Shown here piece after piece: positions 14,401 to 48,433 of a stretch of DNA of 64,000 nt. The stretch is from the IMG/VR virus record IMGVR_UViG_3300037307_000190. One strand, written 5' to 3'. The notes under the pieces were generated by a model. The model had not been told where the DNA came from. It saw only the letters and a list, made by a program, of their open reading frames with translations, and made no database searches. The translations under genes and the position numbers were made by a program. How positions within the stretch are numbered: the first letter of the stretch is position 1; each line of letters starts with the position of its first letter. The stretch is from a virus.

Positions 14401-17400
14401 ATCGGGCTGGGTAAAGCAGGCGATCGCGGCGATCAGGACATGGCTGCGCGAGAACCTGCCGTCGGTGTTCGGCGACATGAAGATGAGCGATGCGGAACTG
14501 GTCCGCAACTACATCCTCCCGGCCAGACGGACGGTTGAGACAGGCACGCCAGCCAAGGGCGAGGGCCGCGCGGCATTCCAACGCGCGCCGATCGTGACGG
14601 AGACGCCGGAGTTCAAGAAGTGGTTCGGCGACAGCAAGGTGGTGAACGCTGACGGCAAGCCGCTGGTGGTGTATCACGGGACGACGGCTGATTTCGACGT
14701 GTTCGATCTCTCATGGACAGAAGTATCTCCGCGTGGAAACACGGCAGGAGCAGGTTTCTTCTTCGGGGAGTCTGCTCTTGAGGCAGAGGGATACACATGG
14801 GGTGCGCGCGGGCCAGAAGGCTCGATCATGCCGGTGTATCTGTCGATCAAGTCCCCCTACGTCATTGGCGAGAACAAGTACGACGATCCGGTATGGAATC
14901 GGATGGTTCAATCGAAGTCAGAAGCAAAGCGGGTGCGCGAAGAGCTGGTCGCCCAGGGGTACGACGGCATTCGCACCGCCCTTGGGGAGTGGGTTGCCTT
15001 CCGCCCCGAGCAGATCAAGAGCGCCACCGGCAACAGCGGCGCCTTCGACCCGACGAACCCGGACATCCGGTTCAGCAGGCGATCCACCGAGCTGCCCGAG
15101 TGGATCAGCAGCGGGCCTGCGGCTCTGCAGTCGGCGGCCAGAAAGTTCGAGACGTTCGCTCCCGGCAAGACGATCGGCGAGAAGTTCGACCAGTGGAAGA
15201 CCGGCCTGCTGGACCGTCTGATTCAGGGAACGATTGACGCCTACCTGCCGCTGAAGCGGCTGGACATGGACGCTTACATCCAAGCTCGGATGACGAAAGC
15301 GTCGGACGGCGCGCTCGAAGGCACGCTGCTCTACGGAAAGCCGGTACTCGACGACGACGGTGGCGTGCGCGGCATCCTCGATGGCAAAGGCTTCCTAGGT
15401 CTGATGCAAGACCTCAACGGCGAGCACGATCGGTTCCTGCTGTGGGTGGCCGGCAACCGCGCTGCGCGCTTGTATTCGGAAGGCCGCGAGAACCTTCTTG
15501 AGCCCGAAGAAATCAAGGCGCTTCAGAAACTCGACAAGGACGTGATGACGGACGGACGCCAGCGCGCACAGGTCTACGAGAAGACGCAGCGCGAGTTCGC
15601 CCAGTTCAACAAGGCGGTGCTCGACTTCGCCGAGAAGGCCGGGATCGTCAACGGCACAGACCGCGACCAGTGGGAAGCCTACTTCTACGTGCCGTTCTTC
15701 CGCGTCAGCGAAGACAGCACGATCGAGGGCCCGTCGGTGAAGGTGCGCGGGCTGGTCGGGCAGCAGGGCATCAAGCGCCTGCTGGGCGGCAAGGACAACA
15801 TGGGCGACCCGCTGCAGAACACGATGATGAACTGGTCGCACCTGTTGTCGGCATCGCTCGCCAACGTCGCGGCCGGCAAGGCGCTGCGGGCCGCGCAAGC
15901 GCAGGGCGTGGCCGAGCAGACCACCGAAGCGGAGGCGCGGATCGTTGCCAAGGCATCGGGCTTCAGGGATGGCGCCGTTTACTACATGAAGGACGGTCAA
16001 AGGCAGTGGTACATGGTGGCCGACAACGCGGTGCTCTCGGCGATCACGTCGCTCGAACCGGTTGGGCTCAAGGGGCCGGCGTTCAAACTCATGCAGAAGG
16101 CCAAGTACTGGCTGACACTTGGCGCGACCATCTCGCCGGCGTTCAAGATCCGAAACCTCCTGCGCGACACCGTGGCCGCACCGGGCATCAACCAGATGTC
16201 CTACAACGTCCTGTCCAACGTGATTCAGGGCTGGAAGGGGACGAAGAAGACCTCGGAGCACTACCAGCAGATGATGTTCTCGGGTGGCCTGATGCGATTC
16301 GGCACGCTGATCGAAGGCGAGCGCGGCTTGCACGCCAAGCGGCTGATCGAGGCCGGCATCAAGGACCAGACCATTCTCGACACACCCGAAAAAATCAAGG
16401 CCGCGACGACCAAGTTGTGGGATACGTGGCAGGAGTTCGGCGACAGGATGGAGAACGTCAATCGTTCTGCCCTGTACGACCAGCTCAAGAAGCAGGGCAA
16501 GAGCCATCGGGAAGCTGCATTCCTCACGCGCGACCTCATGGACTTCTCGCTGCACGGCTCATGGGCCGGCATGAGAATCCTCACGCAAGTCGTGCCGTTC
16601 CTGAACGCCCGGATTCAGGGCCTCTACAAGCTGGGCCGCGCCTACAAGGACGACCGCAAGCGCTTCGCCACGATGACGGGCGCGGTGGCCCTGACATCGA
16701 TCGCTTTGATGCTGGCCTACAAAGACGACGACGAGTGGAAGCAGCGGGAAGACTGGGACCGTGACTTCTACTGGTGGTTCAAGCTCGACGGCGTGGCCTA
16801 CCGCATCCCGAAGCCGTTCGAGATTGGCGCCCTGGGCACGATCGCCGAGCGCACGGCGGAACTGCTGGTGGACGACGAGATGAACGGCAAGCGCTATGCG
16901 GAACGCCTGAAGCAGATGGCGCTGCATACATTCAGCATGAACCCGGTGCCGCAGTTGTTTAAGCCGATGGTCGACCTGTACGCGAACAACGACTCGTTCA
17001 CCGGCCGCCCGATCGAGACGTTTGCGATGGAGGGCCGATCGAAGTCAGAGCGCACCGGCCCCAGCACGACGGCGCTCGCAAAGTTCCTCGGCTCTGCTGG
17101 TGACGTGACGGGCGTTTCTCCGGCACAGATCGATTTCGTCATCGGCGCCTACTTCGGCTGGCTGGGGATGATGACCGCAGCCGTCGTCGATACCGCGGTC
17201 AGCCCCGTGTCGTCCGTGCCGGCGCCGGCCAAGCGTTGGGACGACTGGGCCATGCGATTTGCCACGGAGCTTCCTGAAGCGCAGTCTCGCTACGTCACGA
17301 ACTTCTACAACTCGGCCAAAGAAGCGCAGGGCATCCTGGCCGATCTGCGCGCGGCGCGCGAAGAGCGCGACATGGAGCGGATCGCCGAGCTGATGGCCGA

Positions 17401-17608
17401 TCCGAAGATGGCGACCGCCAAGATGTTCCAGACGCAACAGCGGCGGTTCACAGAGTTGTCGAAGCGCATTCGCGTGGTGCGCGCCGATCGAGAAATGGAC
17501 GGCGACACGAAGCGCGATCGCCTCGACGAGTTGACCCAGCAGCGCAACATGCTGGCGAAGGTCGTCATGGAGCGAGCTGAGCGAGCCCAAGCACAAGCGC
17601 AGCGATGA
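5405..17608 (+). CDS. giant multidomain 'polyvalent' virion protein (4067 aa): MTase + SNF2-type helicase + HExxH peptidase-like + ART-like + PLxRFG-type C-terminal module
   Basis: Uninterrupted 12.2-kb ORF. Motifs read from the translation:
- EPTAGNAAL and LMNPPFG
- GDQTGIGKGR, FDESHNAGG and QMLGRVHRTGQ
- FHEVLGH
- VYHGT..GAGFFFGE..EWVAF
- GLMRFG
This domain mix matches DarB-like polyvalent proteins of phages and conjugative elements (recollection). Confidence 0.85.
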   Translation: MDDLDRLLAGPQSADPYDQLLAGPRGRAQPAPKAEPQPGFIPTVKRTGGQMLTSLARSIEDIGGPQAISQPIRQTGEAIVQSNPAGIGSLEQAAESPWLTVKEAVGQMVPQVGAAGVGATLGGIAGRAIGSRFGAGQLGEKAGRYVGGLSPIFVQEYGGVRDKQVAGGQEDKLRALGAAGISTGLEVLGPEAKVIKGLVGAPLKMGVKDVGIGALKQAGIETFTEGTQNVVGQIGAFEDPTTPQALDETALSALMGGIGGGVVGGALRGAESLMAPGEQEKAPAIEEPPPPQLPYAPDPLVVFPDGSVASKSEAEKIIRAREAAARPWMQPTAPLPEEGPLSKTVNRAVEQGVVSPDLAPAETMGGEDVARTTGAGQPQAAIGGGGPPTGRGGQAQPGGVPEPAAAAAQAPAPSAEAGGVQRGRPDKALTAPADWPVQYGKGVIKTVSALEKYRSDVVADITRLSNGPQKEARRETLARIDASIAQANEEYTNARTDVQGVRAPEGGGVPAERVAESVPPAGEVVPAPGQPVPATTGRAAKPEQQPAAQVVPAQVVEGANRPEQPAVATDVARVEGTQGVANEPVAQQAAVRQMPEGATVDEEARPAGAVVAPTAPATSAAGEAAFQPVAAGPVNRPDGGVTRVDEAANVAATSQTVGPSASAEASLPVQAQPNAAPPASVFESGGATVSQAGVPSEPEPAGAAPRQGKIGDKLAAGEVVLTASGRATTPFPKVSMGSNRATTNTVRSVDRWLLENAAAEAQARGDDFNARTFQADAQSKSMPPASKDAAEEYLFGQQPSVVPSILKPLSPSATPQAPAPAPETAQGAATPAGVAPTRAQFEGFDRVEVKTDAGWKQGVVKMAGSQEVTVRLDDGNDVTVPESNVVPVATALTPEAAPVSAAPLGESNAQEIGIQQGVGDPLGGDAARQAAEAAGGNRLLAAAGGAKVAGQVGIPATEGGAAQVGGPGAIGAGQAAPPIAAPTEGVQRGQVQEGRGQDATQALLSQEPPPQIPPAAAPTNIPTEKPKIVPSKNTIFTDEMRESARAVLRSKLRNINSGLDPEVVQAGITIAGYHIEKGARTFAAYAKAMVADLGHGIKPYLKSWYMAAKYDDRLSPFSKEMDDENTILSWRPSELKSPEGRNEVAKEVAAHFDAGNAFPTINEARTFVASLTGEKIEPGTQEAKLTDEAVENGVVLAARKIVAAGREQGQDDGAIFGRLVKLYDSQPNLGVRSSTSIREQAYSTPTPLAFITSRLANVKPTDRVGEPTAGNAALLVEVDPKNAVVNELNPDRADNLKQLGFSPSANDAATTDLATPKSLDVVLMNPPFGAVKDAEGNTKSYQLTENVRTNEVDQAIAWNSLKAMKDDGRAVLLLGGVDATDPEQIREGYRSRAKREFYWRLYNDYNVVDHFTVDGGLYSRQGAGYPVDVVVIRGRGKTQGRQLPAAQLPDRLTSWQQIKERADGLAQERNAGALLPGVRGPGAGVGAGPEGGGVASPVVGGPGVPGGGAGEQGARPAGGNVPSSEGAGNRPTGRPAGSGSNVRPVQPATEKRPVASGERPQPAVSGEGGARKPVGQAGTQGGRPSEVGGTRVVTGERVESGIGADRRGQETETATQVAYKPKSKVPSVGTLVPVNLRDPIQESLSRMEQEHGNLDTYVARELGIPLQDARDYFSAEQVDALAMAIHNANNGSGFIIGDQTGIGKGRVVAGMIRYAMKQGKVPLFVTEKPNLYGDMIRDLDDTGMTDVLKLDTRTPAIFITNEETIPYSLIRQIDGESVERALKLAPPARGKSLAAAMAEMRDKNSISPYKVIFTTYSQIQTQRGGATERMRFIQQLADGGFAIFDESHNAGGTTVTQPRTKEQRAAAKQGETTMGRAAFVRKLVSKAWGTLFSSATYAKRPDVMDLYSSTNMRLAVPKLADLADAITDGGVPMQQIVATMLAKDGQYIRRERTFAGVDYNTRAMTVDRETAENMAESMREILKFSRRMQTLLKQKQKYLDTEGVKVGTLEGGEKQTIQATNFGSVMHNLIDQMLLSLKAKDSVAFAIERLKAGEKVVLTVSNTMGSFIENFADENGLRNGDAMSLNFGDLYIRYLDKQRYYKVKTPGGATEERYIEDEEMSEKDLALYKETRAFIKGAGFGDAPVSPIDYMHQQLRAAGYKTDEITGRNVGVNYETEIPTLQSRNGSIKQRVDAIRGFNNGSVDALILNQSGATGLSLHASSKVQDKRMRHMIIVQPEKNIDTHVQMLGRVHRTGQVRVPAYTQAMADIPAEMRPAAVLLKKMASLNANTTASRKSAVTAEGVVDFMNDYGGQIAIEYLADNPDVHQSIGGNKVIAIPEDPNEANEDVIRKLTGYIPILPIATQEKVYADLAQRYNELIAREDAMGTNKLEARTLDLDAKTLGRESITENKRGDSIFAQPAYMERVDVKRTVKPMTNAEVDAAIAERLGDKTQQQFINDLYDTALKEKDAFIERRAAELTELGADATRIQLVKDNVNLQWGTVAAVLRTYPPGTRVTMTTSDGTINHGTVLDIQNARTTANPVAGSSWKLTLALVNADARVLQINVGQIGTRYNLNVTNVEIPVIMGTGGVEWVTVKELHDRGPNVRRERRYIVTGNILAGYSTYQGQIITYTKDDGTTGQGVLMSRLFNFEKVKARNIKFTSAAPLMQFLKESADAVVTTDGGLRVTKWNDQYVSFQTAPSKREGGRYFLDKRLTEILRTDFFTVSGKMVARVRGGDVEQIVRQALEYLITERDEAFTPRNNVEKAKSILGIGKVETPTIKAPELDFAPEGEKPSDLKAGARAPDLDIPPEGGGDVRFSRQATSPWYSDLARHVEKAAGGLPMFARGEAQAARVVEVQKLADSITSAWKDAPTIKVVESLRDEGVPEAIRKQDQKQTASGAAKGASAVFYKNTVYLVAGSLGTQRQVAEAVFHEVLGHYGLRATFGAQLNRILDNMARVNRAQIEAKAKEYGLDLSKEGDRRMAAEEVLADLAEKRPQSGWVKQAIAAIRTWLRENLPSVFGDMKMSDAELVRNYILPARRTVETGTPAKGEGRAAFQRAPIVTETPEFKKWFGDSKVVNADGKPLVVYHGTTADFDVFDLSWTEVSPRGNTAGAGFFFGESALEAEGYTWGARGPEGSIMPVYLSIKSPYVIGENKYDDPVWNRMVQSKSEAKRVREELVAQGYDGIRTALGEWVAFRPEQIKSATGNSGAFDPTNPDIRFSRRSTELPEWISSGPAALQSAARKFETFAPGKTIGEKFDQWKTGLLDRLIQGTIDAYLPLKRLDMDAYIQARMTKASDGALEGTLLYGKPVLDDDGGVRGILDGKGFLGLMQDLNGEHDRFLLWVAGNRAARLYSEGRENLLEPEEIKALQKLDKDVMTDGRQRAQVYEKTQREFAQFNKAVLDFAEKAGIVNGTDRDQWEAYFYVPFFRVSEDSTIEGPSVKVRGLVGQQGIKRLLGGKDNMGDPLQNTMMNWSHLLSASLANVAAGKALRAAQAQGVAEQTTEAEARIVAKASGFRDGAVYYMKDGQRQWYMVADNAVLSAITSLEPVGLKGPAFKLMQKAKYWLTLGATISPAFKIRNLLRDTVAAPGINQMSYNVLSNVIQGWKGTKKTSEHYQQMMFSGGLMRFGTLIEGERGLHAKRLIEAGIKDQTILDTPEKIKAATTKLWDTWQEFGDRMENVNRSALYDQLKKQGKSHREAAFLTRDLMDFSLHGSWAGMRILTQVVPFLNARIQGLYKLGRAYKDDRKRFATMTGAVALTSIALMLAYKDDDEWKQREDWDRDFYWWFKLDGVAYRIPKPFEIGALGTIAERTAELLVDDEMNGKRYAERLKQMALHTFSMNPVPQLFKPMVDLYANNDSFTGRPIETFAMEGRSKSERTGPSTTALAKFLGSAGDVTGVSPAQIDFVIGAYFGWLGMMTAAVVDTAVSPVSSVPAPAKRWDDWAMRFATELPEAQSRYVTNFYNSAKEAQGILADLRAAREERDMERIAELMADPKMATAKMFQTQQRRFTELSKRIRVVRADREMDGDTKRDRLDELTQQRNMLAKVVMERAERAQAQAQR
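6507..6692 (+). CDS. nested +1-frame small ORF (61 aa) inside a giant-ORF linker
   Basis: GGGAGGTG is followed by 4 nt and then the ATG. By hand count, 55/61 third positions are G/C in this frame against 22/62 in the host frame over the same stretch. The peptide MLPALQELVSLKLLSVEEAHQLDEV... has normal composition. Confidence 0.45.
   Translation: MLPALQELVSLKLLSVEEAHQLDEVAKRSPAEFLSLPLPLLKRLLQAQRLAAFNVADQTRH
6882..7145 (+). CDS. nested +1-frame small ORF (87 aa), Cys-rich N-terminus
   Basis: GAGGA lies 8 nt upstream of the ATG. The nested frame has high GC3 while the host frame turns A/T-ending. Peptide begins MQGLTCKACERPRVEECRLRGWPNLC... Confidence 0.4.
   Translation: MQGLTCKACERPRVEECRLRGWPNLCRLREKLFPHPDSPYPPLPDELLSPNSSPQRRSFLLKLWKGRIDPSNPQWQPTLPEWKVLKE
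7149..7355 (+). CDS. nested +1-frame small ORF (68 aa) with a CGKC motif, coupled to the preceding nested ORF
   Basis: AAGGAG precedes the ATG, which lies 3 nt after the TAG of ORF 6882..7145. MNPLHNKPPCGKCQKARLLMRKLGL resembles a redoxin-type N-terminus. High GC3. Confidence 0.4.
   Translation: MNPLHNKPPCGKCQKARLLMRKLGLPVPLLHQPPRQPALLAKPPSNPWLQGQSTGPMAESPESMKRPT
8127..8315 (+). CDS. nested +1-frame small basic ORF (62 aa)
   Basis: TAGGAG lies 6 nt upstream of the ATG. By hand count, 56/63 third positions are G/C against 35/63 in the host frame. MLKKSASNKALETLSAEMQPGKPQKQPAAIAYSQQRAAQ resembles small basic proteins with a KQA(I/V)AI..S.AR motif (recollection). Confidence 0.5.
   Translation: MLKKSASNKALETLSAEMQPGKPQKQPAAIAYSQQRAAQKSQGKSVSPPPKAAPRKSAGRGR
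8367..8417 (+). CDS. nested +1-frame micro-ORF (16 aa, MGKSKKGGGKTPPKPC)
   Basis: GAAGGAG lies 6 nt upstream of the GTG, in the same frame as 8127..8315 and 51 nt after its TAG. It may be the severed tail of that ORF. Confidence 0.25.
   Translation: MGKSKKGGGKTPPKPC
9120..9760 (+). other. N6-adenine DNA methyltransferase-like domain of the giant protein
   Basis: Motif I-like GEPTAGNAAL at about 9200-9226. Motif IV NPPF at 9377-9388, in frame with 5405. Confidence 0.7.
9792..10211 (+). CDS. nested +1-frame ORF (139 aa) inside the Gly/Pro-rich linker between the MTase and helicase domains
   Basis: AAGGAG lies 7 nt upstream of the ATG. Nearly every codon ends in G/C, while the host frame reads gga/ggt/gct/caa codons. 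The peptide MASRKNVTLVPFCPEYVDPELG... is globular-looking. Confidence 0.5.
   Translation: MASRKNVTLVPFCPEYVDPELGSVLVPKGEVSQAQWWEALAFRVAELVSKEHDPQAAMYQAARALGTGLPDDPQEAGAMFVLSNLQLKNALSHQANDHSLQFPAKAALGNPSAKQALKEVDLQRWVELASSQVSESSLE
10490..12175 (+). other. SNF2/DEAD-like helicase domain of the giant protein
   Basis: GDQTGIGKGR at about 10492-10521, DESH at 10937-10948 and QMLGRVHRTGQ at 12140-12172. All are in frame. Confidence 0.75.
14204..14221 (+). other. HExxH zinc-peptidase-like motif (HEVLGH) in the giant protein
   Basis: The triplets cac gaa gtc ctc ggg cac read directly, in frame. Confidence 0.6.
14660..15022 (+). other. ADP-ribosyltransferase-like (ART-PolyVal-type) module of the giant protein
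   Basis: PLVVYHGTTADFDVFDL ... GAGFFFGES ... YDGIRT ... GEWVAFRPEQIKS resembles the H-Y/S-E type ART pattern (recollection). Confidence 0.5.
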
Positions 17609-22503: not shown

Positions 22504-22754
22504 CGGTTCCAGTCCTCCACGCAGTCGCCGCACAGCAGCTTGCATTCCGCGCTGGTGCGCGGGTCGTCGCGGTGCGGGCCGCAGTTCATCGTGCAGAGCT
22601 TCGTGCTCGGGTCAAAGGCGGCCAGCGCTGCTGGGTCGGCGCGCGGCCATTGAATCGGAGCGCACAGTGCATCGCGCTTCGGAACCAGCCGCCCAACCCC
22701 TCGCTCAACCTGACCCAAAGGGGCAGGCTGCACCTGTGCTTCGTCATGCTTCAT
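22500..22754 (-). CDS. hypothetical Cys-rich protein (84 aa); the N-terminus lies inside attC-like element L
   Basis: High GC3 from about codon 23 onward. C-terminal CTMNCGPH...CKLLCGDC. Confidence 0.5.
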   Translation of the reverse strand: MKHDEAQVQPAPLGQVERGVGRLVPKRDALCAPIQWPRADPAALAAFDPSTKLCTMNCGPHRDDPRTSAECKLLCGDCVEDWNR

Positions 22755-22792
22755 CTGCTGCCCCTTTGGTCAGGTTAGCTCGAACGTTAGGC
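22691..22792 (+). repeat. attC-like imperfect palindrome L (102 nt)
   Basis: GCCCAAC CCCTC GCT[C]AACCTGACC[C]AAAGGGGCAG[G]C ... GCTGCCCCTTTGGTCAGGTTAGC TCGAAC GTTAGGC. Spacers are 5 and 6 nt, with extra bases in the 5' arm. Confidence 0.7.
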
Positions 22793-23169
22793 GCTAGCGC
22801 TTCCATCGCGTCCATTGCTTCGTCTATTTCTTCCCACCAGCCGTGTTGCGCCCACAGCCCGAGTCCGTCGCACTCCCATTCTTCTGCTTCTGCGCGCAGC
22901 GTTTGATAGGCTTGCGCCACCTTGCGCAGCGCTTGCAACTCCGCTTCTTGTGTGTTTACCGTGCGCGCTAGCACGTCGCGTATCTTCTCGACCTCGCCTA
23001 GATCGTCCGCCAGTTTCTTGCGCCAGCGGTGGTGGTCGTCGCGCTCTTTGGCAATGACATCAACTTCGCGCCATGCAAGCGAGGCTTCCTGCAGCAGAGT
23101 CTCGCGCTCGTCCATGAGGCGGTCGTATTCGTCGCCGCTCAGGCGCACTACGTCAGCGGCGCGGCTCAC
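22744..23169 (-). CDS. hypothetical coiled-coil protein (141 aa)
   Basis: GTG start with GGAGGA upstream and a GTGA overlap with the upstream stop. The last 14 codons run into attC-like element L. Confidence 0.6.
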   Translation of the reverse strand: MSRAADVVRLSGDEYDRLMDERETLLQEASLAWREVDVIAKERDDHHRWRKKLADDLGEVEKIRDVLARTVNTQEAELQALRKVAQAYQTLRAEAEEWECDGLGLWAQHGWWEEIDEAMDAMEALAPNVRANLTKGAADEA

Positions 23170-23504
23170 GCTCTGTCCTCCGCGTCAACCTGTGCCAGCG
23201 CGTCCATGACGGCCTGAACTCGGTCATCGCGCGCCGAGATCGTGCCGTGATAGCCAAGCGGCGCCATCATGGCGTCAACGGCCTGCCGCAGTACGCGATA
23301 GGCGCGAAGCGCTTGCTGCACCTCAACTACGCGCTCCTGCCATGCAATCGCGTTTGATGGCACAAGCGCACCAAGTCTGCGCACTTCCACCACCAGATCG
23401 CGGATCACCGCGAGATAGCCGTACTCATCAGTCATGTTGATGCCGCGTTTGTCCGCCTCATCAAGCCACGTCTGCGCGCGGTTAAGTAAGTCATTTACCG
23501 CCAT
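23166..23504 (-). CDS. hypothetical protein (112 aa)
   Basis: The ATG (MAVNDLLNRAQ...) overlaps the TAA of the small TM ORF. Upstream of it, the track frame has low GC3. Confidence 0.55.
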   Translation of the reverse strand: MAVNDLLNRAQTWLDEADKRGINMTDEYGYLAVIRDLVVEVRRLGALVPSNAIAWQERVVEVQQALRAYRVLRQAVDAMMAPLGYHGTISARDDRVQAVMDALAQVDAEDRA

Positions 23505-23629
23505 GTAGTCAACCTCCCCGTCGCCCACTGCCAGAGGAACCATAGGCCGATCGCAAGCGCCGCAATGCCCACAACGATCAGCGGTAACGCCAGCAACCAC
23601 AGAACCCACAACGGTATGCTCAAGGTCAT
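23495..23629 (-). CDS. small membrane protein (44 aa)
   Basis: Hand translation gives MTLSIPLWVLWLLALPLIVVGIAALAIGLWFLWQWATGRLTTWR. GAGGTGA upstream. GC3 is higher than in the overlapping track frame. Confidence 0.5.
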   Translation of the reverse strand: MTLSIPLWVLWLLALPLIVVGIAALAIGLWFLWQWATGRLTTWR

Positions 23630-23714
23630 ACGTCACCTCATCACTTTGCACGCGCGAAGCGCGCGCCCATGTTTCCAGGCGCGCTCTCGCGGTAAATCGC
23701 TTCGCCACCATCGT

Positions 23715-23770
23715 GCCTAACACGTCATTCGATCCGACCGCCTCGCGGCGGCTCAATTCCCACGTTAGGC
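23715..23770 (+). repeat. attC-like imperfect palindrome A (56 nt)
   Basis: GCCTAAC ACGTC ATTCGATCCGACCGCC TCGC GGCGGCTCAAT TCCCAC GTTAGGC. It aligns along its whole length with the aadA1 59-be as I remember it. Confidence 0.75.
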
Positions 23771-24003
23771 ACCGGCAACCGCCTGCCTTCTCTTTGCTCA
23801 ATCTTCCGCACGGCATCAGCCCATGCTTCCGCCTCCGTCCTGCCAAGGCCAAATAGTCCACGCCTAAATGTTTCAGGCCAGTGCTCGTCGTTCAGTCGTT
23901 TTCGTTCGTCGTGGCTTATGTCCCACACGCTCCATTCGCCAGTACTTTCCTGCTCTGCGCTTGCGTGCGGGTAGCGGCTGCGTACCTTGCCTTGGTTCGT
24001 CAT
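23725..24003 (-). CDS. hypothetical protein (92 aa)
   Basis: AGGAGGG upstream of the ATG. The last 13 codons lie in attC-like element A. Confidence 0.6.
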   Translation of the reverse strand: MTNQGKVRSRYPHASAEQESTGEWSVWDISHDERKRLNDEHWPETFRRGLFGLGRTEAEAWADAVRKIEQREGRRLPVPNVGIEPPRGGRIE

Positions 24004-24019
24004 CTTCTCGCCCTCCTGT

Positions 24020-24079
24020 GCCTAACATTTCATTCAACCCGGACGCTCTACGAGCGTCCGGTTAATTCAAGCGTTAGGC
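24020..24079 (+). repeat. attC-like imperfect palindrome B (60 nt)
   Basis: GCCTAAC ATTTC ATT[C]AACC[C]GGACGCTC TAC GAGCGTCCGGTTAAT TCAAGC GTTAGGC. The 6-nt spacer TCAAGC is identical to that of the remembered aadA1 attC. Confidence 0.8.
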
Positions 24080-24304
24080 CCGTTCAAGCTGTGCAATCGC
24101 CGCATTCAGTTCATCGGCCCACGCGGCGTGTTCGCGGCTGGCTGTCGCATCAACCAATTGCCTAGCCTTACGCAGCGCAACCAGTGCAACATCCCGCGCA
24201 TCATCGCGCTCACGTTCTCGCCGCTGCGCCTCCCTGCCGTGCGCTGGGCAATCTGGGTCTTCGGCGATAAATGGCCCGCCAATCTTGTAGCACTCGCACA
24301 TCAT
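24074..24304 (-). CDS. hypothetical protein (76 aa)
   Basis: GGAGAGAG upstream. The TAA stop is the complement of TTA in the GTTAGGC box of element B. Confidence 0.6.
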   Translation of the reverse strand: MMCECYKIGGPFIAEDPDCPAHGREAQRRERERDDARDVALVALRKARQLVDATASREHAAWADELNAAIAQLERA

Positions 24305-24323
24305 CTCTCTCCGGTTACAACGA

Positions 24324-24384
24324 GCCTAACCCGTCATTCTTAGACCTGCGGATCTCCGAAAAATCTTCGCGCTGGGTGTTGACA
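24324..24384 (+). repeat. attC-like element C, left arm canonical and right arm divergent
   Basis: GCCTAAC CCGTC ATTCTTAGACC... ends at GTTGACA, whose TTGACA is the -35 box of the consensus promoter. Confidence 0.4.
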
Positions 24385-24407
24385 GGCTGCGCCTCGTGGC
24401 GTATAAT
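24379..24407 (+). promoter_or_regulatory. perfect consensus sigma70-type promoter (TTGACA-17 nt-TATAAT)
   Basis: TTGACA at 24379-24384 and TATAAT at 24402-24407, with a 17-nt spacer counted by hand. It faces the two + strand genes. Confidence 0.8.
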
Positions 24408-24461
24408 TGCGTCATCGCATCGGCACAGGGCCGAAGCGCAAACGGCAGAAAGGCCACGATC

Positions 24462-24680
24462 ATGAGCAAGTCCCAATCCCTCGAAACCAGCAACATCGCT
24501 GCCAGCGCCATCCGCCAAGCGCTCCGCCGCGAGTTCGGCGCCCGCCAGTACCGCATCACGCGCGACGGCGAAATTTACGTCTACGGCCCGATGACCAACG
24601 CCACGCACATCATCGGCTGGCGCCTGTACGGTCACGTCAGCGACCAGCAAACGCTGTGCAACCTCGGCTTGGACGCATGA
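24462..24680 (+). CDS. hypothetical protein (72 aa), first gene of a rightward 2-gene module
   Basis: M23 of track ORF 24396..24680, 54 nt downstream of the consensus promoter. Confidence 0.6.
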   Translation: MSKSQSLETSNIAASAIRQALRREFGARQYRITRDGEIYVYGPMTNATHIIGWRLYGHVSDQQTLCNLGLDA

Positions 24681-24895
24681 GCCGGCTACTACATGAGTGC
24701 GGCGAGGCTCTGTATGGGCCTCGCTGGCAGTCCGAATTGGCGCGTGACCTTGATGTAAGCATCCGCACCATGCAACGCTGGGCTGCCGGCACCACAGACG
24801 TGCCGGTCGGTCTGTACGTTGACCTACTGCGCCTGACGCAAGAGCGCGCCGCGGTGCTCGACGAACTCGCTCCACGGCTTCGCAAGGCGCCATAA
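24677..24895 (+). CDS. small HTH DNA-binding protein (72 aa, XRE/Cro-like)
   Basis: ATGA overlap with the upstream gene. ELARDLDVSIRTMQRWAAG is a helix-turn-helix pattern. The TAA stop lies in the first box of attC-like element N. Confidence 0.65.
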   Translation: MSRLLHECGEALYGPRWQSELARDLDVSIRTMQRWAAGTTDVPVGLYVDLLRLTQERAAVLDELAPRLRKAP

Positions 24896-24989
24896 CACGC
24901 CCATCGAGCTGACCCACGCCGGCAAGCAGCGTGTCGCGCGTCGGTTGCATCGTATCGGCCGGCATGTTCAGCTCATGGGCACGTTAAAA
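24890..24989 (+). repeat. attC-like imperfect palindrome N (100 nt), degenerate boxes
   Basis: CCATAAC ACGCC CAT[C]GAGCTGA... ...TTCAGCTCATG GGCAC GTTAAAA. The arms pair with an extra C in the 5' arm. Confidence 0.55.
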
Positions 24990-25186
24990 CTCATTGCGGC
25001 ACCGTCACCAACCATCTGCCCGAGCTTCCAATCGCCAATGTTCGCGCCAAAGAAAAAGTGTCTCGGTGGCGGTGGCCAGCAGCCTTTCTGCATCATCAAT
25101 GCAACGCTGTAGCTGCACAGCAGCTTCCCGTCTTGCCAGCATTCGCGGCACATCGTCGCCGGGTTGTCGTAGGTGCAAACGGCCAT
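24968..25186 (-). CDS. hypothetical Cys-containing protein (72 aa)
   Basis: Track ORF. The ATG lies 4 nt from the TTCTAAC box of element D. Confidence 0.5.
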   Translation of the reverse strand: MAVCTYDNPATMCRECWQDGKLLCSYSVALMMQKGCWPPPPRHFFFGANIGDWKLGQMVGDGAAMSFNVPMS

Positions 25187-25189
25187 GAG

Positions 25190-25261
25190 TTCTAACCCTG
25201 CGTTCCATGCGCGACAGTCCGAAGCTGCGCTTCGTCCTGCGGCCTGAACTCCACGTTAGGC
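25190..25261 (+). repeat. attC-like imperfect palindrome D (72 nt)
   Basis: TTCTAAC CCTGC GTTCCATGCGCG ... GCGGCCTGAAC TCCAC GTTAGGC. Confidence 0.55.
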
Positions 25262-25564
25262 GTCGGGGTCATCCGGGCACGCCATCCAGTAGCGCGGCTG
25301 GTGCAGCCAGTAGCCGTCCCACGTAAGGTGCCACCCCTCGGAGCCGCTGCCGCGTTTGTCGTCGGCCGCGAGCCACCGCGCTGCGTGCGGGATGTCGCTG
25401 CCGTCCATCAGCACAAGGATCGCAGTGCCGTCTTTTGGCGCGCTGCGCATGCCTTGCCACGGCCGAGCGGTTGCGCACGCTTGCGCGAACCGCCGCACCG
25501 CAGGAGTCAGCGTGCCGCCGCATCCGGTCTGCGTCATCAGCCTGTGAATCTGCGTGTCGTCCAT
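25256..25564 (-). CDS. hypothetical protein (102 aa), possibly DUF551-like
   Basis: M12 of the track ORF, with GGAGAGGAA upstream. The TAA stop is the complement of TTA in the GTTAGGC box of element D. Confidence 0.55.
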   Translation of the reverse strand: MDDTQIHRLMTQTGCGGTLTPAVRRFAQACATARPWQGMRSAPKDGTAILVLMDGSDIPHAARWLAADDKRGSGSEGWHLTWDGYWLHQPRYWMACPDDPDA

Positions 25565-25588
25565 CGTTTCCTCTCCGTTCACCGCGCC

Positions 25589-25661
25589 GCCTAACACGGC
25601 GCTGCAAGGGACCTCCTACGGCGCTGCGCGCCTTCGTCGGCCCCTGCGCTATGCGTTAGAG
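25589..25661 (+). repeat. attC-like imperfect palindrome E (73 nt)
   Basis: GCCTAAC ACGGC GC[T]GCA[A]GGG[A]CC ... GGCCCCTGCGC TATGC GTTAGAG. Confidence 0.6.
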
Positions 25662-26083
25662 CGCAGCAATTCGTGCCCGCGCCGCCATATCTCAATTTTC
25701 ATGCCGCCGCGCGCATCCAGTTTCTTGGCCTGCGCCTTCGTGACTGTCTGCGCAATTCGCCGGCAGTCCATCTCGTGGCACTGCTGCGGCTTGTCGGCTT
25801 GGCGAGTGCACCCGCCGTCGCCCAGATACACGCAATCGCCGTTCGGTTTGTGGGCCAGCATCAGCGCGCCGGCCATGTATGGGTGCGGCTCGGTATGCCA
25901 GCGGCTCGCGTCCTCGTGCGGCAGTATCCGCACCGCATCATTGTGGCAACAGGCCGTGCAGCCGTTGCATGGCACGGCGTAGAAGCCCATCGCCATTCGC
26001 ACTTGGTGCAGAGTGCGGCTGCGCTCTAACTCTGCGTTCGAGCGGACCTCCAACGGCCCGGCGAGTTCAGTGCCCATCATCAC
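25649..26083 (-). CDS. YkgJ-family CxxCxxCC zinc/iron-chelating domain protein
   Basis: CNGCTACC motif near the N-terminus and further Cys residues downstream. GGGAAGGTG upstream. The first ~29 codons lie in element F (alternative start M30 at 25996). Confidence 0.65.
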   Translation of the reverse strand: MMMGTELAGPLEVRSNAELERSRTLHQVRMAMGFYAVPCNGCTACCHNDAVRILPHEDASRWHTEPHPYMAGALMLAHKPNGDCVYLGDGGCTRQADKPQQCHEMDCRRIAQTVTKAQAKKLDARGGMKIEIWRRGHELLRSNA

Positions 26084-26125
26084 CTTCCCTGCGGGCCGTT
26101 TGGTCCGCTCACCTCTGCGTTAGAC
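26024..26125 (+). repeat. attC-like imperfect palindrome F (102 nt)
   Basis: CTCTAAC TCTGC GTT[C]GAGCGGACC[TCC]AACGGCCCG ... CGGGCCGTTTGGTCCGCTCAC CTCTGC GTTAGAC. Confidence 0.7.
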
Positions 26126-26311
26126 ATCTAGTTCGTCCAGCTTCTTTGCCGTGTCGATTGCAAACCCGGCAGCGATCAAAGCGGCCTTGAAAGCCTCGAT
26201 CATGTGGTCGAGCCCACCGTCGCCTGAAAGCGAAACCATTGCATGCTGCTTACTTCCGTGTGGGTAAGTCCCGCTGATCGTGATTTCAACCATGTGCGTC
26301 AGTTCGTCCAT
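26120..26311 (-). CDS. hypothetical protein (63 aa)
   Basis: GGAG upstream. The TAA stop is the complement of TTA in the GTTAGAC box of element F. Confidence 0.55.
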   Translation of the reverse strand: MDELTHMVEITISGTYPHGSKQHAMVSLSGDGGLDHMIEAFKAALIAAGFAIDTAKKLDELDV

Positions 26312-26324
26312 CTCAATACTCCAT

Positions 26325-26387
26325 GCCTAACATTTGCGTCAACGCGTACGCTTCGCAAGCTCAGCGCCGGTTACGCCAGCGCTAGGC
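26325..26387 (+). repeat. attC-like imperfect palindrome G (63 nt)
   Basis: GCCTAAC ATTTG CGT[C]AACGCGTACGC ... GCGCCGGTTACGC CAGC GCTAGGC. Confidence 0.6.
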
Positions 26388-26591
26388 CTTACGCGGGCGC
26401 CTGAAAACCCACCACTGCTGCGGCGTCTCTTTGCCGTGCCAGTGAGTCGCGCCGTAGCTGACGAACTCCCATCCCTGTGCGTCCATGTCGTTCAGCCACC
26501 ATTCCATTTGCCCGTAGTCCATCATGTGGCTCGTGGCATCTGGCGGCAGCATCGGTCGCGTCACCCGGTATTCGAACTTCGCCATTGTCAT
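26382..26591 (-). CDS. DUF4177-like small protein (67-69 aa)
   Basis: The FEYRV....LNDMDAQGWEFVS....VFRRP pattern matches the family (recollection). The TAG stop occupies positions 2-4 of the GCTAGGC box of element G. Confidence 0.6.
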   Translation of the reverse strand: MTMAKFEYRVTRPMLPPDATSHMMDYGQMEWWLNDMDAQGWEFVSYGATHWHGKETPQQWWVFRRPRKA

Positions 26592-27007
26592 CCTTTCCGG
26601 CCATCAGGCCTAACAGGTCGCTCAGCCAGCAGCCGCTGCTCGTCGCGTGCCGCTGGGCGCAACTCAGCTCGAACGTTGGCGCTTTCACGCTCCGGCCTGC
26701 ACTCGTGCGCGTGACACACGCCGCATAGGAACCAAGGGTCGCCCAGCGGGCCGTTATGCGTGAACTGCCACTTGTGGCCGATCCTGCCGCAAGCATCGCG
26801 CATGTCCTTCAGGTTTGGGCAGTAGTAGCTCTGGTCGAAGTCACGCATCAGCTCGCGCATAACGTCCCGGCGCTCCTTCTCAATGCCGCGCACGGCGTTG
26901 GCAATCTCGCTGTGCGTTGCCAACTCGCGCGCATCCACCACGCGCCTAACACGCCGGTCGAGCCGACATTCGTCGGCGGCCGGCATCGTCCTGCTTTGGT
27001 CACTCAT
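26588..27007 (-). CDS. hypothetical Cys/His-rich protein (139 aa); the start lies in element I and the tail reads through element H
   Basis: AAGGAGG upstream of the ATG. GC3 drops over the last ~30 codons. Confidence 0.55.
   Translation of the reverse strand: MSDQSRTMPAADECRLDRRVRRVVDARELATHSEIANAVRGIEKERRDVMRELMRDFDQSYYCPNLKDMRDACGRIGHKWQFTHNGPLGDPWFLCGVCHAHECRPERESANVRAELRPAARDEQRLLAERPVRPDGRKG
26608..26681 (+). repeat. attC-like imperfect palindrome H (74 nt)
   Basis: GCCTAAC AGGTC GCTCAGCCAGC ... CAACTCAGC TCGAAC GTTGGCG. Its right end matches element L except for one missing A in the last box. Confidence 0.55.
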
Positions 27008-27042
27008 CAGCGCCTCCTTGTCGGCTCACCAGCACGTTAGGC
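26943..27042 (+). repeat. attC-like imperfect palindrome I (100 nt)
   Basis: GCCTAAC ACGCC GGT[C]GAGCCGACA ... TGTCGGCTCACC AGCAC GTTAGGC. Confidence 0.7.
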
Positions 27043-27059
27043 GTCACAAATCCAACCGG

Positions 27060-27167
27060 TCAATTTCGCAACCTTGCCACAGTCAGCACGTCATTCGCGG
27101 GGTTCACTTTGTGGTCGGTCAGTTCACGCATTTGCGCTCCAAGGTTGTGCCGCCGCGTGTCACTCAT
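27060..27167 (-). CDS. micro-ORF (35 aa) overlapping the end of the upstream gene
   Basis: Hand translation gives MSDTRRHNLGAQMRELTDHKVNPANDVLTVARLRN. The ATG lies inside TATGAGTGA at the end of 27160..27531. Confidence 0.3.
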   Translation of the reverse strand: MSDTRRHNLGAQMRELTDHKVNPANDVLTVARLRN

Positions 27168-27531
27168 ACAGACCCCCAATCGTCTTCTCTACCACCTTGG
27201 CGGCCGCCGGGTCATGCTTGGCCTGTGATCGCAGCATCTGGTGCGTCAGCTTCACCCACATTTCCTCGACCTCTCTATAGACCTCGTCGTCGTGCTTCGC
27301 GAACATCCGGCGCTGGTCGTGCTGCGTATGGCACCCAGCCTTGCCGACTCGATCCACGCACAACGGGAACGCTTGACGATCATCGGCCTTCACGCCCTTT
27401 CCTTTACCGGTGTTGGCGTGCGCGTGGTTCGAGTAGCCGTGAACACCGCATGAGACACACGGCAGCGCGGCCACCAGCCGTCGGTAGGGCTCGCTGCGCA
27501 CGGGCTTGATCTTCGGGAAGCTGGGCATCAT
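27160..27531 (-). CDS. Zn-finger/HNH-like prophage protein (DUF968-like)
   Basis: YRRLVAALPCVSCG...HAHANTGKGKGVKADDRQAFPLC...CHTQHD. Family assignment is from memory. Confidence 0.5.
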   Translation of the reverse strand: MMPSFPKIKPVRSEPYRRLVAALPCVSCGVHGYSNHAHANTGKGKGVKADDRQAFPLCVDRVGKAGCHTQHDQRRMFAKHDDEVYREVEEMWVKLTHQMLRSQAKHDPAAAKVVEKTIGGLYE

Positions 27532-27572
27532 CGAGCGGATCTAGGCTGCATTGTTTCTCGCCAAAAGTTGAT

Positions 27573-27669
27573 GCCTAACGTAGCCGTGGCGGTTGGTTCT
27601 CTGTTCTCTTCGCCAAGCCTCAAGCCTTGCCCGAAGCTGGGCTTCCGTTGCGCCTCTCATCCGTTCCAT
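27573..27669 (+). repeat. possible partial attC-like element J
   Basis: GCCTAAC GTAGC... is present, but I could not find a convincing partner box (GTTGCGC or GTTCCAT) or good arm pairing. Confidence 0.3.
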
Positions 27670-37254: not shown

Positions 37255-37327
37255 GGCGGGATAGCTCAGGCAGTAGAGCGCGGGCGTCATGCGCCCGAGG
37301 TCGGCGGTGCAGCTCCGTCTCCCGCAT
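37255..37327 (+). tRNA. tRNA-like element, anticodon CAU, with non-canonical features
   Basis: Folds by hand as GGCGGGA TA GCTC AGGCAGTA GAGC G CGGGC GTCATGC GCCCG AGGTC GGCGG TGCAGCT CCGTC TCCCGCA T. It has a G1-A72 mismatch, G32/G37, T-loop TGCAGCT instead of TTCRANY, and no encoded CCA. Confidence 0.5.
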
Positions 37328-37353
37328 CCGGTCCATCTGCCAAGCCTCGCACC

Positions 37354-48191: not shown

Positions 48192-48433
48192 CACTTCCCC
48201 CTTTCGGCCGGGCAGTGGGCGATCTGCTGGTGCTTGTCGCATTCGCCGTGTGCGTGGGTCGTGAGCGCCGCGACGGTCAGACCCATCAGCGCGGCGATGC
48301 GCAGCATGGTGAGCCGGCGCATGGCGTCGATGGCCGTGGCGGCTTGTGCCGTGCGCGGCTGCGCGCGGTTCAGTGCCGCGAGCTGTGTGCGGTGCGCCGC
48401 AATGGCGCTGCGAGTGGTGTAGTGCATTTTCAT
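48191..48433 (-). CDS. hypothetical protein (78-80 aa) with an internal hydrophobic segment
   Basis: Track ORF and first gene of the leftward island. Segment LTMLRIAALMGLTVAALTTHAHG. Confidence 0.45.
   Translation of the reverse strand: MKMHYTTRSAIAAHRTQLAALNRAQPRTAQAATAIDAMRRLTMLRIAALMGLTVAALTTHAHGECDKHQQIAHCPAERGK

Follow-up and report, generated by a model that had tools for sequence, protein, structure and literature searches.

The window, as the whole 64-kb stretch of viral DNA analysed here is called, contains a short two-gene unit that lies on the + strand between neighbouring genes on the - strand (24074..24304 and 24968..25186). The preliminary description had placed such a self-promoted, translationally coupled pair of 72-aa genes amid genes of the opposite strand, and the layout agrees with that account: ORF1 and ORF2 encode 72 aa each, overlap by ATGA and follow their own consensus promoter. 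The unit comprises the following features.

24324..24356, + strand: left half of attC-like element C (R'' GCCTAAC at 24324-24330, spacer CCGTC, L''-like ATTCTTAG)
24359..24378, + strand: A-tract AAAAATCTTCGCGCTGGGTG 5' of the -35 box, at the start of sister-cassette homology (the string also lies inside the related loci L042, L024 and L043)
24379..24407, + strand: sigma-70-type promoter, TTGACA (24379-24384), 17-nt spacer, TATAAT (24402-24407)
24397..24414, + strand: predicted operator, inverted repeat TGGCGTA-TAAT-TGCGTCA over the -10 box (conserved 7-4-7 repeat, covariation)
24416..24438, + strand: 5' UTR hairpin 1, CGC-A-TCGGC, loop ACAGG, GCCGA-A-GCG (MFE fold, covariation)
24444..24455, + strand: 5' UTR hairpin 2, GGC, loop AGAAAG, GCC (MFE fold, covariation)
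24462..24680, + strand: ORF1, 72 aa, candidate anti-defence protein of an uncharacterised family, most likely an anti-CRISPR (operon context)
24677..24895, + strand: ORF2, 72 aa, Aca-like HTH protein, putative autorepressor and distant single-domain relative of Aca2 (PDB profile search, AF2/Foldseek)
24890..24989, + strand: attC-like site N of the ORF1-ORF2 cassette, R'' CCATAAC, L'' CATCGAGC, L' GCTCATG, R' G|TTAAAA

The DNA of 23800-25600 has no similarity match among 50,697 phage records, and Rfam gives matches at chance level alone on 24200-25000. Searches with both flanking proteins for a cassette-free site returned distant relatives in other contexts and no empty site.

Promoter, leader and HTH protein

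The promoter claimed for this unit is a perfect consensus sequence. No other promoter-like site between 18 and 34 kb scores 12/12, and in a search of both strands of the whole window allowing at most one mismatch the promoter is unique (0.02 expected by chance). Counterparts of both its boxes, -35 and -10, occur in 19 aligned related loci. An inverted repeat of the same 7-4-7 form occurs at the same position in ~100 related loci (family pattern TGKCSTA-N4-TASGMCA), the copy in the window being two mismatches from perfect symmetry; a conserved inverted repeat inside the core promoter is one of the features by which acr-aca operons are recognised, as the predicted Aca site. The fifth base of the operator changes in step with ORF2 residues 29 and 33, in the recognition helix: helices of the type xDRTxRRW pair with TGTCCTA in 60 of 64 cases, and those of the type xI/V/LRTxQRW with TGKCGTA in eight of nine. 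A loose version of the operator pattern has five further matches across the window, all poor palindromes, of which that at 48734 is coding sequence on inspection and that at 29124 falls, judged by coordinates, within the primase ORF. These matches, two of the five placed in coding sequence, were treated as chance, and an operator copy within a promoter was seen for the ORF1-ORF2 unit alone.

Between the operator and ORF1, the predicted leader folds into two hairpins, and a Shine-Dalgarno sequence lies in and beside the loop of the second, 7-15 nt 5' of the ATG. The leaders of related loci were compared in an N-padded alignment made from per-sequence MFE folds, which replaced a plain MAFFT alignment in which hairpin 1 was out of register between subgroups; because the alignment came from these folds, pairing is 100% by construction and only the covariation counts are informative. 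Compensatory changes occur in seven of the 10 base pairs of hairpin 1 (48 loci) and in four of the six of hairpin 2 (11 of 16 for both). Cells with compensatory changes number 120 versus 31 in shuffles, none of 500 shuffles reaching the observed value, and sliding the partners lowers the leader covariation score from 0.425 to 0.019 or less. Aca2 has been reported to use a promoter inverted repeat together with two 5' UTR hairpins (PMC13551039), and by analogy the two-hairpin leader may echo the DNA-plus-RNA control of Aca2, with ORF2 as the putative RNA-binding protein.

That the second gene encodes an HTH protein, as had been claimed, is borne out by profile and structure searches, which identify a single-domain HTH with Aca2 as its nearest solved relatives. 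A profile search of the PDB with ORF2 places four Aca2 entries at the top (E 2.2e-4 to 3.3e-4, query residues 20-70), followed by HigA-2 (E 1.1e-3). Structure prediction of both proteins, which had been proposed as a check, was carried out with AF2 on alignments of database homologues. The ORF2 model (pLDDT 95) is an HTH for which Foldseek ranks Aca2 first and places Aca2 chains at 1, 2, 4, 5 and 8 (TM 0.72-0.74, rmsd 2.4-2.6), with Aca7 and Aca10 at ranks 15-16. With its C-terminus at residue 72, past the third helix, the protein belongs to a family of more than 500 proteins with 45-93% identity; amongst the family members looked up at NCBI, one is called 'hypothetical protein' and two are nameless, and the motif ALYGPRWQS was not found in the literature searched. 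ORF2 has no match to PF08965 (DUF1870 / Aca2_YdiL) at E <= 1. The C-terminal domain and the TTCG-N6-CGAA operator that mark the Aca2 family are likewise absent. The comparison with other named Aca families covered Aca1, Aca3-7, Aca9 and Aca10, and ORF2 was placed in none of them on the combined evidence of Pfam, PDB and Foldseek: the models HTH_3, HTH_XRE, HTH_23, HTH_28, HTH_31 and HTH_24 of named Aca families gave no match, and Aca1 and Aca10 are not among its PDB sequence matches. The Pfam search also returned PF15943 (YdaS_toxin; YdaS/Cro-like) at E 0.0068, under the family cut-off, and PHROGs gave weak matches to repressor families.

Exchangeable upstream genes and the ORF1 family

Known acr genes adjoin ~15% of Aca-like and ~3% of Aca2-like homologues (Shehreen et al., PMC9410906), and an Aca-like HTH protein alone is therefore weak evidence for an anti-CRISPR locus. 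The operons to which ORF2 homologues belong add further evidence. In these loci the ORF2 homologue is the closing gene of a short operon with one to four upstream genes, the first of which usually begins ~45-50 nt past the inverted repeat. In most loci the last of these genes shares 4 or 1 nt with the start of the aca gene. A short operon with a strong promoter that ends in a small HTH gene is a further mark of acr-aca loci. The 110 cargo proteins encoded upstream of ORF2 homologues fall into 68 clusters and range from 32 to 294 aa, and the small, diverse upstream genes are exchangeable between Aca families, as is typical of acr-aca operons. The ORF2 family also lies directly 3' of a validated Acr: AcrIC5 (PF22147, E 1.6e-17), which has been validated experimentally as an anti-CRISPR (PMC7913775), adjoins an ORF2 homologue in three loci (L012/L013, L079). 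Other cargo includes the anti-restriction protein ArdC (L016), a DnaJ-domain protein and a hexapeptide-repeat protein. Three of the 68 clusters carry a recognised anti-defence or anti-CRISPR annotation, and AcrIC5 is the one experimentally validated anti-CRISPR among them. Units of this type occur in unrelated contexts, including Mu-like prophages, P22-like and lambda-like contigs, and a Bradyrhizobium chromosome.

Direct searches with ORF1 identify a large family of its own. Pfam, PHROGs and NCBIfam returned nothing usable, the PDB sequences no significant match, and tblastn against phage records no match. The ORF1 model (pLDDT 82.6) has no match among PDB folds (best E 0.67), its matches in BFVD are uncharacterised phage proteins alone, and similarity to known Acr proteins was not found in PDB sequence and fold searches or in BFVD. 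The family has 141 members in one search and 402 cluster representatives in another. Its members occur in operons of the ORF2 type and in one operon of the Aca10 type; in the latter, a four-gene operon, the last gene is an Aca10 homologue (7xi5, E 1.1e-18) and the operator is Aca10-like. A gene of the L020_1 family is also found in the operon closed by the Aca10 homologue, beside the ORF1-family member. This context suggests that ORF1 is a small inhibitor of host defence, with CRISPR-Cas most probably as its target.

attC-like sites and cassette boundaries

The unit had been described as a cassette with its own promoter in an attC-like array, and the array is real. The heptamer GCCTAAC/GTTAGGC has 13 copies, all within 22786-27579, compared with 2.85 expected in 64 kb, and four sites satisfy a strict R''-L''(extra C)-L'-R' definition versus 0.4 in shuffles. 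None of the 51 window ORFs or segments with 200 aa or more matches the Phage_integrase family, and with no match to an integron integrase the array is only CALIN-like.

Site N forms the right end of the cassette. The stop codon of ORF2 (TAA, 24893-24895) lies within its R'' box, CCATAAC (24890-24896), and a scan pairs the 7-mer CCATCGA with the 6-mer TCATGG around one extra C, in agreement with the claim that this stop codon sits in the first box of an element whose arms pair with an extra C. The L boxes, assigned by eye, are CATCGAGC (24902-24909), with one extra C, and GCTCATG (24971-24977), and the R' box is GTTAAAA (24983-24989); CCATAAC and GTTAAAA are each one base off the strict consensus. 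The site thus has the R''/L''/L'/R' boxes, the imperfect palindrome and the extra base in L'' that characterise attC. Homology extends to the attC sites of L043 and L042 and stops exactly after the G|TT of R', where the sequences diverge.

The related loci define the left boundary. In L043 the cassette begins at G|TTATGG, 47 nt 5' of the -35 box. Where the stop codon lies in an NNN-TAA-C box, an exact reverse-complement 7-mer is present 5' of the operator in 10 of 17 sister loci (nine at 58-73 nt upstream and one at 163 nt), and an eleventh has the 7-mer with one mismatch. Exact G|TT boundaries together with the left 7-mer are found in L042, L043, L019, L050, L014, L054, L058, L062 and L068, and the flanks of the sister cassettes diverge exactly at GTT. 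Sister operons bounded exactly at G|TT would therefore be movable as cassettes, putatively by an integron integrase, and the exact G|TTATGG boundaries make the operon a probable integron-type cassette.

In the window the right end fits G|TT; the left end lacks GTTATGG and has the left half of element C in its place. Homologous left halves occur in elements A (23715) and B (24020), as repeat family D1, and a search for a matching L'/R' half of element C found the left half alone. This half-site is outside the operon and marks an abnormal, truncated left junction. Because the left cassette end is truncated, the earlier proposal that the -35 sequence GTTGACA is the R' core of element C is unsupported; GTTGACA does not fit GTTRRRY, no L' pairs with ATTCTTAG, and the string GGGTGTTGACAG also occurs inside the sister cassette of L043, past the true boundary.

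Interpretation and comparison with known systems

Taken as a whole, 24359-24989 is probably an acr-aca-type operon for counter-defence, complete in itself and packaged as an integron-style cassette. Upon DNA entry, the consensus promoter would be fired by the host sigma-70 RNA polymerase, giving a transcript with a ~48-nt leader followed by ORF1 and then ORF2, whose translation would be coupled through the ATGA overlap. ORF1 would be the payload, a small inhibitor of a defence system and most probably of CRISPR-Cas. As ORF2 accumulates, it would bind as a dimer to TGGCGTA-N4-TGCGTCA over the -10 box and switch the promoter off and, if it acts as Aca2 does, it may bind both leader hairpins as well and block the ribosome-binding site. 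The operon is followed by its own attC-like site, and the left end of the cassette is truncated in this phage.

The same acr-aca architecture could carry a payload directed against a non-CRISPR defence (e.g., restriction-modification or abortive infection) or towards early host takeover, a possibility that is real if the less likely one, and that is a variant of the counter-defence cassette reading which does not contradict it. ArdC, DnaJ-domain and hexapeptide-repeat proteins in sister operons are consistent with such a payload, as are reports of broader anti-defence genes in Aca-regulated operons (PMC13551039) and the lack of a known Acr that matches ORF1. The evidence that points back to CRISPR-Cas is that AcrIC5, at three loci, is the sole validated anti-CRISPR among the cargo, and that an ORF1-family member shares an operon with an Aca10 homologue, Aca10 itself having been described alongside AcrIC6/IC7.

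The preliminary description had offered a toxin-antitoxin-like pair, an immunity repressor unit or a moron, suggestions that proved unsupported or too broad given a hypervariable cargo that includes AcrIC5 and ArdC. The first of these would make the locus a type II HigBA-like addiction cassette, in which ORF1 as toxin and ORF2 as antitoxin and autorepressor stabilise the attC array. The resemblance of ORF2 to the HigA-2 antitoxin, the translational coupling and the toxin-first, HTH-second order, which fit HigBA and MqsRA, are what such a cassette would display, and toxin-antitoxin modules are frequent among self-promoted integron cassettes (PMC9892861). However, ORF1 has no toxin similarity in sequence (Pfam, PDB) or in fold, the ORF1-family member beside the Aca10 homologue is paired with an unrelated regulator, and ORF2, at only 72 aa, has no extra toxin-binding domain. 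Additionally, the conserved HTH protein is accompanied by one to four genes from 68 clusters (32-294 aa), whereas the partners in toxin-antitoxin pairs are co-conserved, and an addiction cassette is accordingly improbable. Very improbable is a Cro/CII or immunity-type developmental pair in which ORF2 controls early or late phage transcription and ORF1 is an accessory regulator, since the sub-threshold YdaS/Cro-like match, the weak PHROG repressor matches and the position in an early-type gene region are set against a mobile cassette found in Mu-like, P22-like, lambda-like and Bradyrhizobium contexts, an operator whose five other loose matches are poor palindromes, two of them placed in coding sequence, leaving its own as the one copy in a promoter context, and a window in which no integrase or lysogeny module was found in a screen of ORFs and segments with 200 aa or more.

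If the counter-defence cassette reading is correct, the packaging of the operon as a mobile cassette suggests that phages can swap such genes through integron machinery. Integron recombination and phage counter-defence, hitherto separate fields of study, meet in the cassette boundaries, which suggest a concrete route by which phages gain and exchange anti-CRISPR genes. Should ORF2 be a working Aca, it would represent a large unnamed family of more than 500 proteins with an easily recognised operator and leader motif, and the Aca2-type DNA-plus-RNA control would extend to a minimal 72-aa HTH protein. Used as bait, the operator and leader motif already yields 68 candidate anti-defence clusters, almost all of them uncharacterised, with ~400 cluster representatives in the ORF1 family by itself; the match between recognition-helix residues and operator bases offers a ready specificity code for testing. 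A broader proposal, put forward tentatively, is that host integron integrases shuffle autoregulated anti-CRISPR or anti-defence cassettes (consensus promoter, operator, two-hairpin leader, exchangeable payload, and a new single-domain Aca controlling DNA and RNA) into attC arrays of virulent phages of Burkholderiales-type hosts, and that ORF1 founds a new and widespread Acr family of at least 400 sequence clusters.

Amongst known systems, HigB2-HigA2 (PDB 5JAA, 5J9I) shares the order of a small protein followed by an HTH protein, and the ORF2 HTH aligns to the C-terminal domain of HigA2 (E 1e-3). Unlike in that system, the upstream partner does not have a RelE/HigB fold and is not co-conserved with the HTH protein, and ORF2 is structurally farther from HigA2 (Foldseek TM 0.57, rmsd 5.3) than from Aca2. 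The cassette resembles own-promoter cassettes in CALINs, including phage ones (PMC9892861), in its R''/L''/L'/R' boxes with the extra L'' base, in the sister-locus ends at G|TT with a left 7-mer that is the exact complement of R'', and in having no tyrosine recombinase near the attC-like array (as screened in ORFs or segments with 200 aa or more). It differs from these cassettes in its acr-aca-type content, in the left end truncated in the window and in the other small genes of the array, which are antisense to the attC orientation. In the literature searched, no paper naming both anti-CRISPR and attC reports an acr-aca-type cassette in its title or abstract.

The acrIC7-acrIC6-aca10 operon (Aca10, PDB 7XI5) follows the same operon logic, and the operator ATACACGCAATGCGTATAT of the operon that combines an ORF1-family member with an Aca10 homologue resembles the Aca10 site ATACGCTCATTGAGCGTAT; ORF2 differs from Aca10, which is missing from its sequence search at E <= 1 and ranks 16th in Foldseek. 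With acrIF8-aca2 of Pectobacterium phage ZF40 the locus shares a strong sigma-70 promoter, an inverted-repeat operator on the core promoter, and the order of a small payload gene before the gene for an HTH repressor. Unlike Aca2 (~116-125 aa, DUF1870/PF08965), ORF2 has 72 aa and no C-terminal dimerisation domain, and the operators of its family (TGTCCTA-N4-TAGGACA or TGGCGTA-N4-TACGCCA) differ from that of Aca2 (TTCG-N6-CGAA; PMC6765145). Two covarying 5' UTR hairpins are present here, and two are reported for Aca2. Alignment with the ORF2 family profile covers Aca2 residues 17-68, and superposition of the ORF2 model covers residues ~1-70 (TM 0.73, rmsd 2.5).

Promoter, regulator and leader of the module

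Most probably, the two-gene module is an acr-aca-type counter-defence operon that controls its own expression and sits on an integron-style cassette. The preliminary description proposed two overlapping genes on the + strand amid - strand genes, preceded by a perfect promoter, and both proposals stand. ORF1 (the candidate payload) and ORF2 (the regulator) encode 72 aa each and share ATGA at their junction, and TTGACA-17-TATAAT is the sole 12/12 site in a promoter scan of 18-34 kb and the one match with at most one mismatch on both strands of the whole 64 kb (0.02 expected from shuffles). Because the G+C content of the window is 63%, this consensus promoter lies far beyond chance.

Features of the module (window coordinates)
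24074..24304, - strand: flanking gene
24379-24407: promoter (TTGACA 24379-24384, 17-nt spacer, TATAAT 24402-24407)
24397-24414: inverted repeat TGGCGTA-TAAT-TGCGTCA, overlapping the -10 box
24416-24438: predicted leader hairpin 1
24444-24455: predicted leader hairpin 2
24462..24680, + strand: ORF1
24677..24895, + strand: ORF2
24968..25186, - strand: flanking gene

The helix-turn-helix identity suggested earlier for ORF2 is supported by structure prediction and by PDB searches topped by Aca2. Searched alone, ORF2 gives only matches below threshold (the Cro-like YdaS family and two PHROGs of unknown function); its homologues number more than 500, nearly all of 71-75 aa, with 76-93% identity among the matches listed, and both NCBI-sourced names on record for them are "hypothetical protein". 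When a profile of ORF2 (alignment A2, 27 diverse members) is run against PDB sequences, the top four matches are Aca2 repressors (E 2.2e-4 to 3.3e-4, query residues 20-70), and the HigA-2 antitoxin comes next. With the AF2 model of ORF2 (pLDDT 95, three helices), Foldseek places Aca2 chains at ranks 1, 2, 4, 5 and 8 (TM 0.72-0.74, rmsd 2.4-2.6, 71 columns), and HigA2, Aca7 and Aca10 rank lower. Since Aca2 leads in both searches, ORF2 is remotely related to the DNA-binding domain of Aca2 and has no other domain. In Acidovorax phage Aval, a homologue of 87 aa (76% identical; OP131589.1 38256-38519, L001 4001-4264) is missing from the GenBank annotation; its start overlaps the gp45 stop (GTGA), and a perfect operator, TGTCCTAAAATTAGGACA, lies upstream. 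In Mannheimia (L002 2698-3216) and Xanthomonas OP2-like (L003 2668-3228) phages, an ORF2-like domain forms the C-terminal third of phrog_12690-like proteins of 172-186 aa. These proteins could unite payload and regulator in one chain, as AcrIIA1 and AcrIF24 do.

When the window is analysed jointly with 121 related loci, drawn from collections of viruses, genomes and metagenomes, a 7-4-7 inverted repeat (consensus TGTCCTA-N4-TAGGACA) is seen in about 100 loci, upstream of the ORF2 homologue and in the same orientation. Among 75 distinct protein-operator pairs, the recognition helix xDRTxRRW accompanies TGTCCTA half-sites in 60 of 64, and I/V/L plus Q at two variable positions of the helix accompany TGKCGTA in 8 of 9, the latter pairing being seen with homologues whose identity to the ORF2 of the window is 52%, 63% and 71-100%. 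No other indirect evidence for recognition of this operator by ORF2 is as strong as this co-variation. The position of the -10 box predicts a transcription start near 24414 and hence a leader of about 48 nt, in which the second of two predicted hairpins displays AGAAAGG 8-9 nt ahead of the ATG. The two-hairpin shape is the MFE fold for most of 76 distinct leaders and matches no Rfam family. Because the leader alignment was made from each sequence's own fold, its 100% pairing arises by construction, and covariation alone counts as evidence for the hairpins: compensatory changes occur at 11 of 16 base pairs (48-sequence alignment), cells with such changes number 120 versus 31 in shuffles (the observed value was reached by 0 of 500), and the covariation score is 0.425 versus at most 0.019 with partners slid by 1-3 columns.

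Variable cargo and the candidate payload

In the related loci, one to four small genes lie between the repeat and the ORF2 homologue, the first usually beginning about 45-50 nt past the repeat and the last overlapping the start of the homologue by 4 nt or 1 nt in most cases. Clustering of the 110 cargo proteins yields 68 clusters, and very few of the proteins are known to Pfam: AcrIC5 (E 1.6e-17; 3 loci), ArdC with its metallopeptidase domain, a DnaJ-domain protein and a hexapeptide-repeat protein. AcrIC5 is a type I-C anti-CRISPR validated by experiment and originally found beside aca1 (PMC7913775). Aca proteins are defined by just such a signature, a conserved HTH protein behind a payload that is exchangeable and mostly orphan (PMC9410906). 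On the chromosome of Bradyrhizobium sp. STM 3557 (L016 1973-3210), the same operator (TGTCCTAAATTTAGGACA) and leader serve a gene for a 294-aa ArdC-type anti-restriction protein, after which comes an ORF2 homologue (46% identical); the ORF2 family is thus not limited to phages or to anti-CRISPR payloads.

ORF1 has no match in Pfam, PHROGs, NCBIfam or PDB sequences. A profile extends its family to 141 proteins by one search and to 402 cluster representatives by a second; the members listed are nearly all unnamed and 55-90 aa long. The family forms the largest cargo cluster among ORF2-type operons. The AF2 model (pLDDT 82.6; a helix, a three-stranded sheet and a short helix) finds nothing significant among PDB folds (best E 0.67) and only uncharacterised phage proteins in BFVD. 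A family member in L122/L123, P0173, is 59% identical to ORF1 across 75% of its length and belongs to a four-gene operon (L122 3813-4574): first a gene homologous to L020_1, itself cargo of an ORF2-type cassette, then the ORF1-like gene, a 74-aa gene and, in last place, a close homologue of Aca10 (PDB 7XI5; E 1.1e-18). The promoter of this operon has ATACACGCAATGCGTATAT, near the published Aca10 site ATACGCTCATTGAGCGTAT. Guilt by association therefore runs both ways: a validated Acr accompanies the ORF2 family, and a homologue of a validated Aca accompanies the ORF1 family. About 1 kb upstream of the operon, L122 2483-2953 encodes a 156-aa protein with Aca2_YdiL/HTH_31 matches, and the region looks like a counter-defence island holding two Aca types.

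The TA-like pair and the immunity-type regulator entertained in the preliminary description are hard to reconcile with a hypervariable cargo that includes AcrIC5. A type II toxin-antitoxin module is very improbable, as nothing ties ORF1 to RelE/HigB-type or other toxins, and a phage developmental regulator is less credible still. Within the acr-aca reading, an anti-CRISPR target is the leading guess for ORF1.

Cassette boundaries, attC-like array and phage genome

GCCTAAC/GTTAGGC occurs in 13 copies, all within 22786-27579 (2.85 expected per 64 kb). A strict scan for attC sites (complementary R''/R' boxes 40-150 nt apart, L''/L' pairing around one extra base) finds four complete sites in the window versus 0.4 in shuffles, and 14 attC-like sites in 8 of the 121 loci versus 1 in shuffles.

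Features of the array and of the phage genome (window coordinates)
5405-17608: polyvalent protein, 4067 aa, with LPD38, ART-PolyVal (ADP-ribosyltransferase) and Strawberry-notch-type helicase domains
22691-22792, + (top) strand: attC-like site, strict scan
23715-23770, + (top) strand: attC-like site, strict scan
24020-24079, + (top) strand: attC-like site, strict scan
24890-24896: site N, R'' box CCATAAC with the ORF2 stop codon; then spacer ACGCC, L'' CATCGAGC and a variable centre
24983-24989: site N, R' GTTAAAA, preceded by L' GCTCATG and spacer GGCAC
26944-27042, + (top) strand: attC-like site, strict scan
37255-37329: tRNA-Met
48299-48390: tRNA-Ser

In this array (22691-27579, within the early-type region) the small genes between the four sites are encoded by the - strand, opposite to the direction that cassette genes usually have, and the extra base of the four sites is C. 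Site 24020-24079, whose R' box holds the stop codon of 24074..24304, closely resembles the aadA-type 59-base element, a 3' 20-mer of which is present in one published paper.

As described earlier, the TAA of ORF2 lies in the first box of site N, within CCATAAC. The corresponding stop codon lies inside an NNN-TAA-C box in 17 of 78 distinct loci, 10 of which have the exact reverse-complement 7-mer (GTTATGG, GTTAAAC, GTTAGAG or GTTACGC) upstream of the operator, at 58-73 nt in nine and 163 nt in one; an eleventh has one mismatch. Left of the boundary GTT the loci are mutually unrelated, and right of it CGCCCGGCACCATCGCCGCACGCC...AAAAAT...TTGACA is common to them. The attC at the right end is alike in the window, L043 and L042 through GGGCAC-G, with divergence from TT on. 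Integron cassettes are delimited in precisely this way, and the cassette property is true of a subset of ORF2-family loci.

The left end of the window's module is abnormal, with GCCTAAC where GTTATGG is expected. The following 28 nt are homologous to the left halves of neighbouring attC-like sites, and homology with the sister cassettes starts at AAAAATCTTCGC (24359). The distance from GCCTAAC to the operator is exactly 73 nt, which is the position of G|TTATGG in L042/L043; the 27-28 nt in between show no relationship, and a deletion or an unusual exchange may lie behind this. The -35 box had been read as the R' core of the neighbouring attC-like element C; since the left homology starts at 24359 and GGGTGTTGACAG is found within the cassette of L043, GTTGACA is promoter sequence rather than a hybrid R' box, and that assignment is rejected. 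On the other side, the last five codons and the stop of 24968..25186 come from L', spacer and R' of site N (24968-24989), so the C-terminus of this protein is made by the junction.

Its gene content shows the window to be, in essence, the genome of a single phage, with a P22-like portal, a capsid protein, an SU10-type adaptor, ERF/YqaJ recombination genes and, on the - strand, a Toprim primase and a helicase; none of 10 large ORFs tried matched an NCBIfam family. Polyvalent proteins are thought to be delivered together with incoming DNA. No tyrosine recombinase or integrase was found among the 51 ORFs or segments scanned, each 200 aa or longer, and the two tRNA genes therefore look phage-encoded rather than attachment sites. 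Two further sequencing runs contain the same phage, including the same ORF1-ORF2 module.

Relation to known systems

CALINs have been described in phages before (PMC9892861). No acr-aca cassette is reported in the titles and abstracts of the searched literature naming anti-CRISPR, attC, integron and cassette, or in PMC9892861; within these sources, the link between acr-aca operons and attC-bounded cassettes is new. New, too, are the candidate payload family of ORF1 and the Aca2-like family, unnamed and of one domain, which has an operator and a leader motif of its own. Aca2 is reported to act through an inverted repeat at the promoter as well as two 5' UTR hairpins (PMC13551039). In contrast to Aca2, ORF2 has neither the dimerisation domain nor a match to Pfam DUF1870, and its operator differs from that of Aca2 (TTCG-N6-CGAA); the present system looks like a minimal form of the Aca2 control logic.
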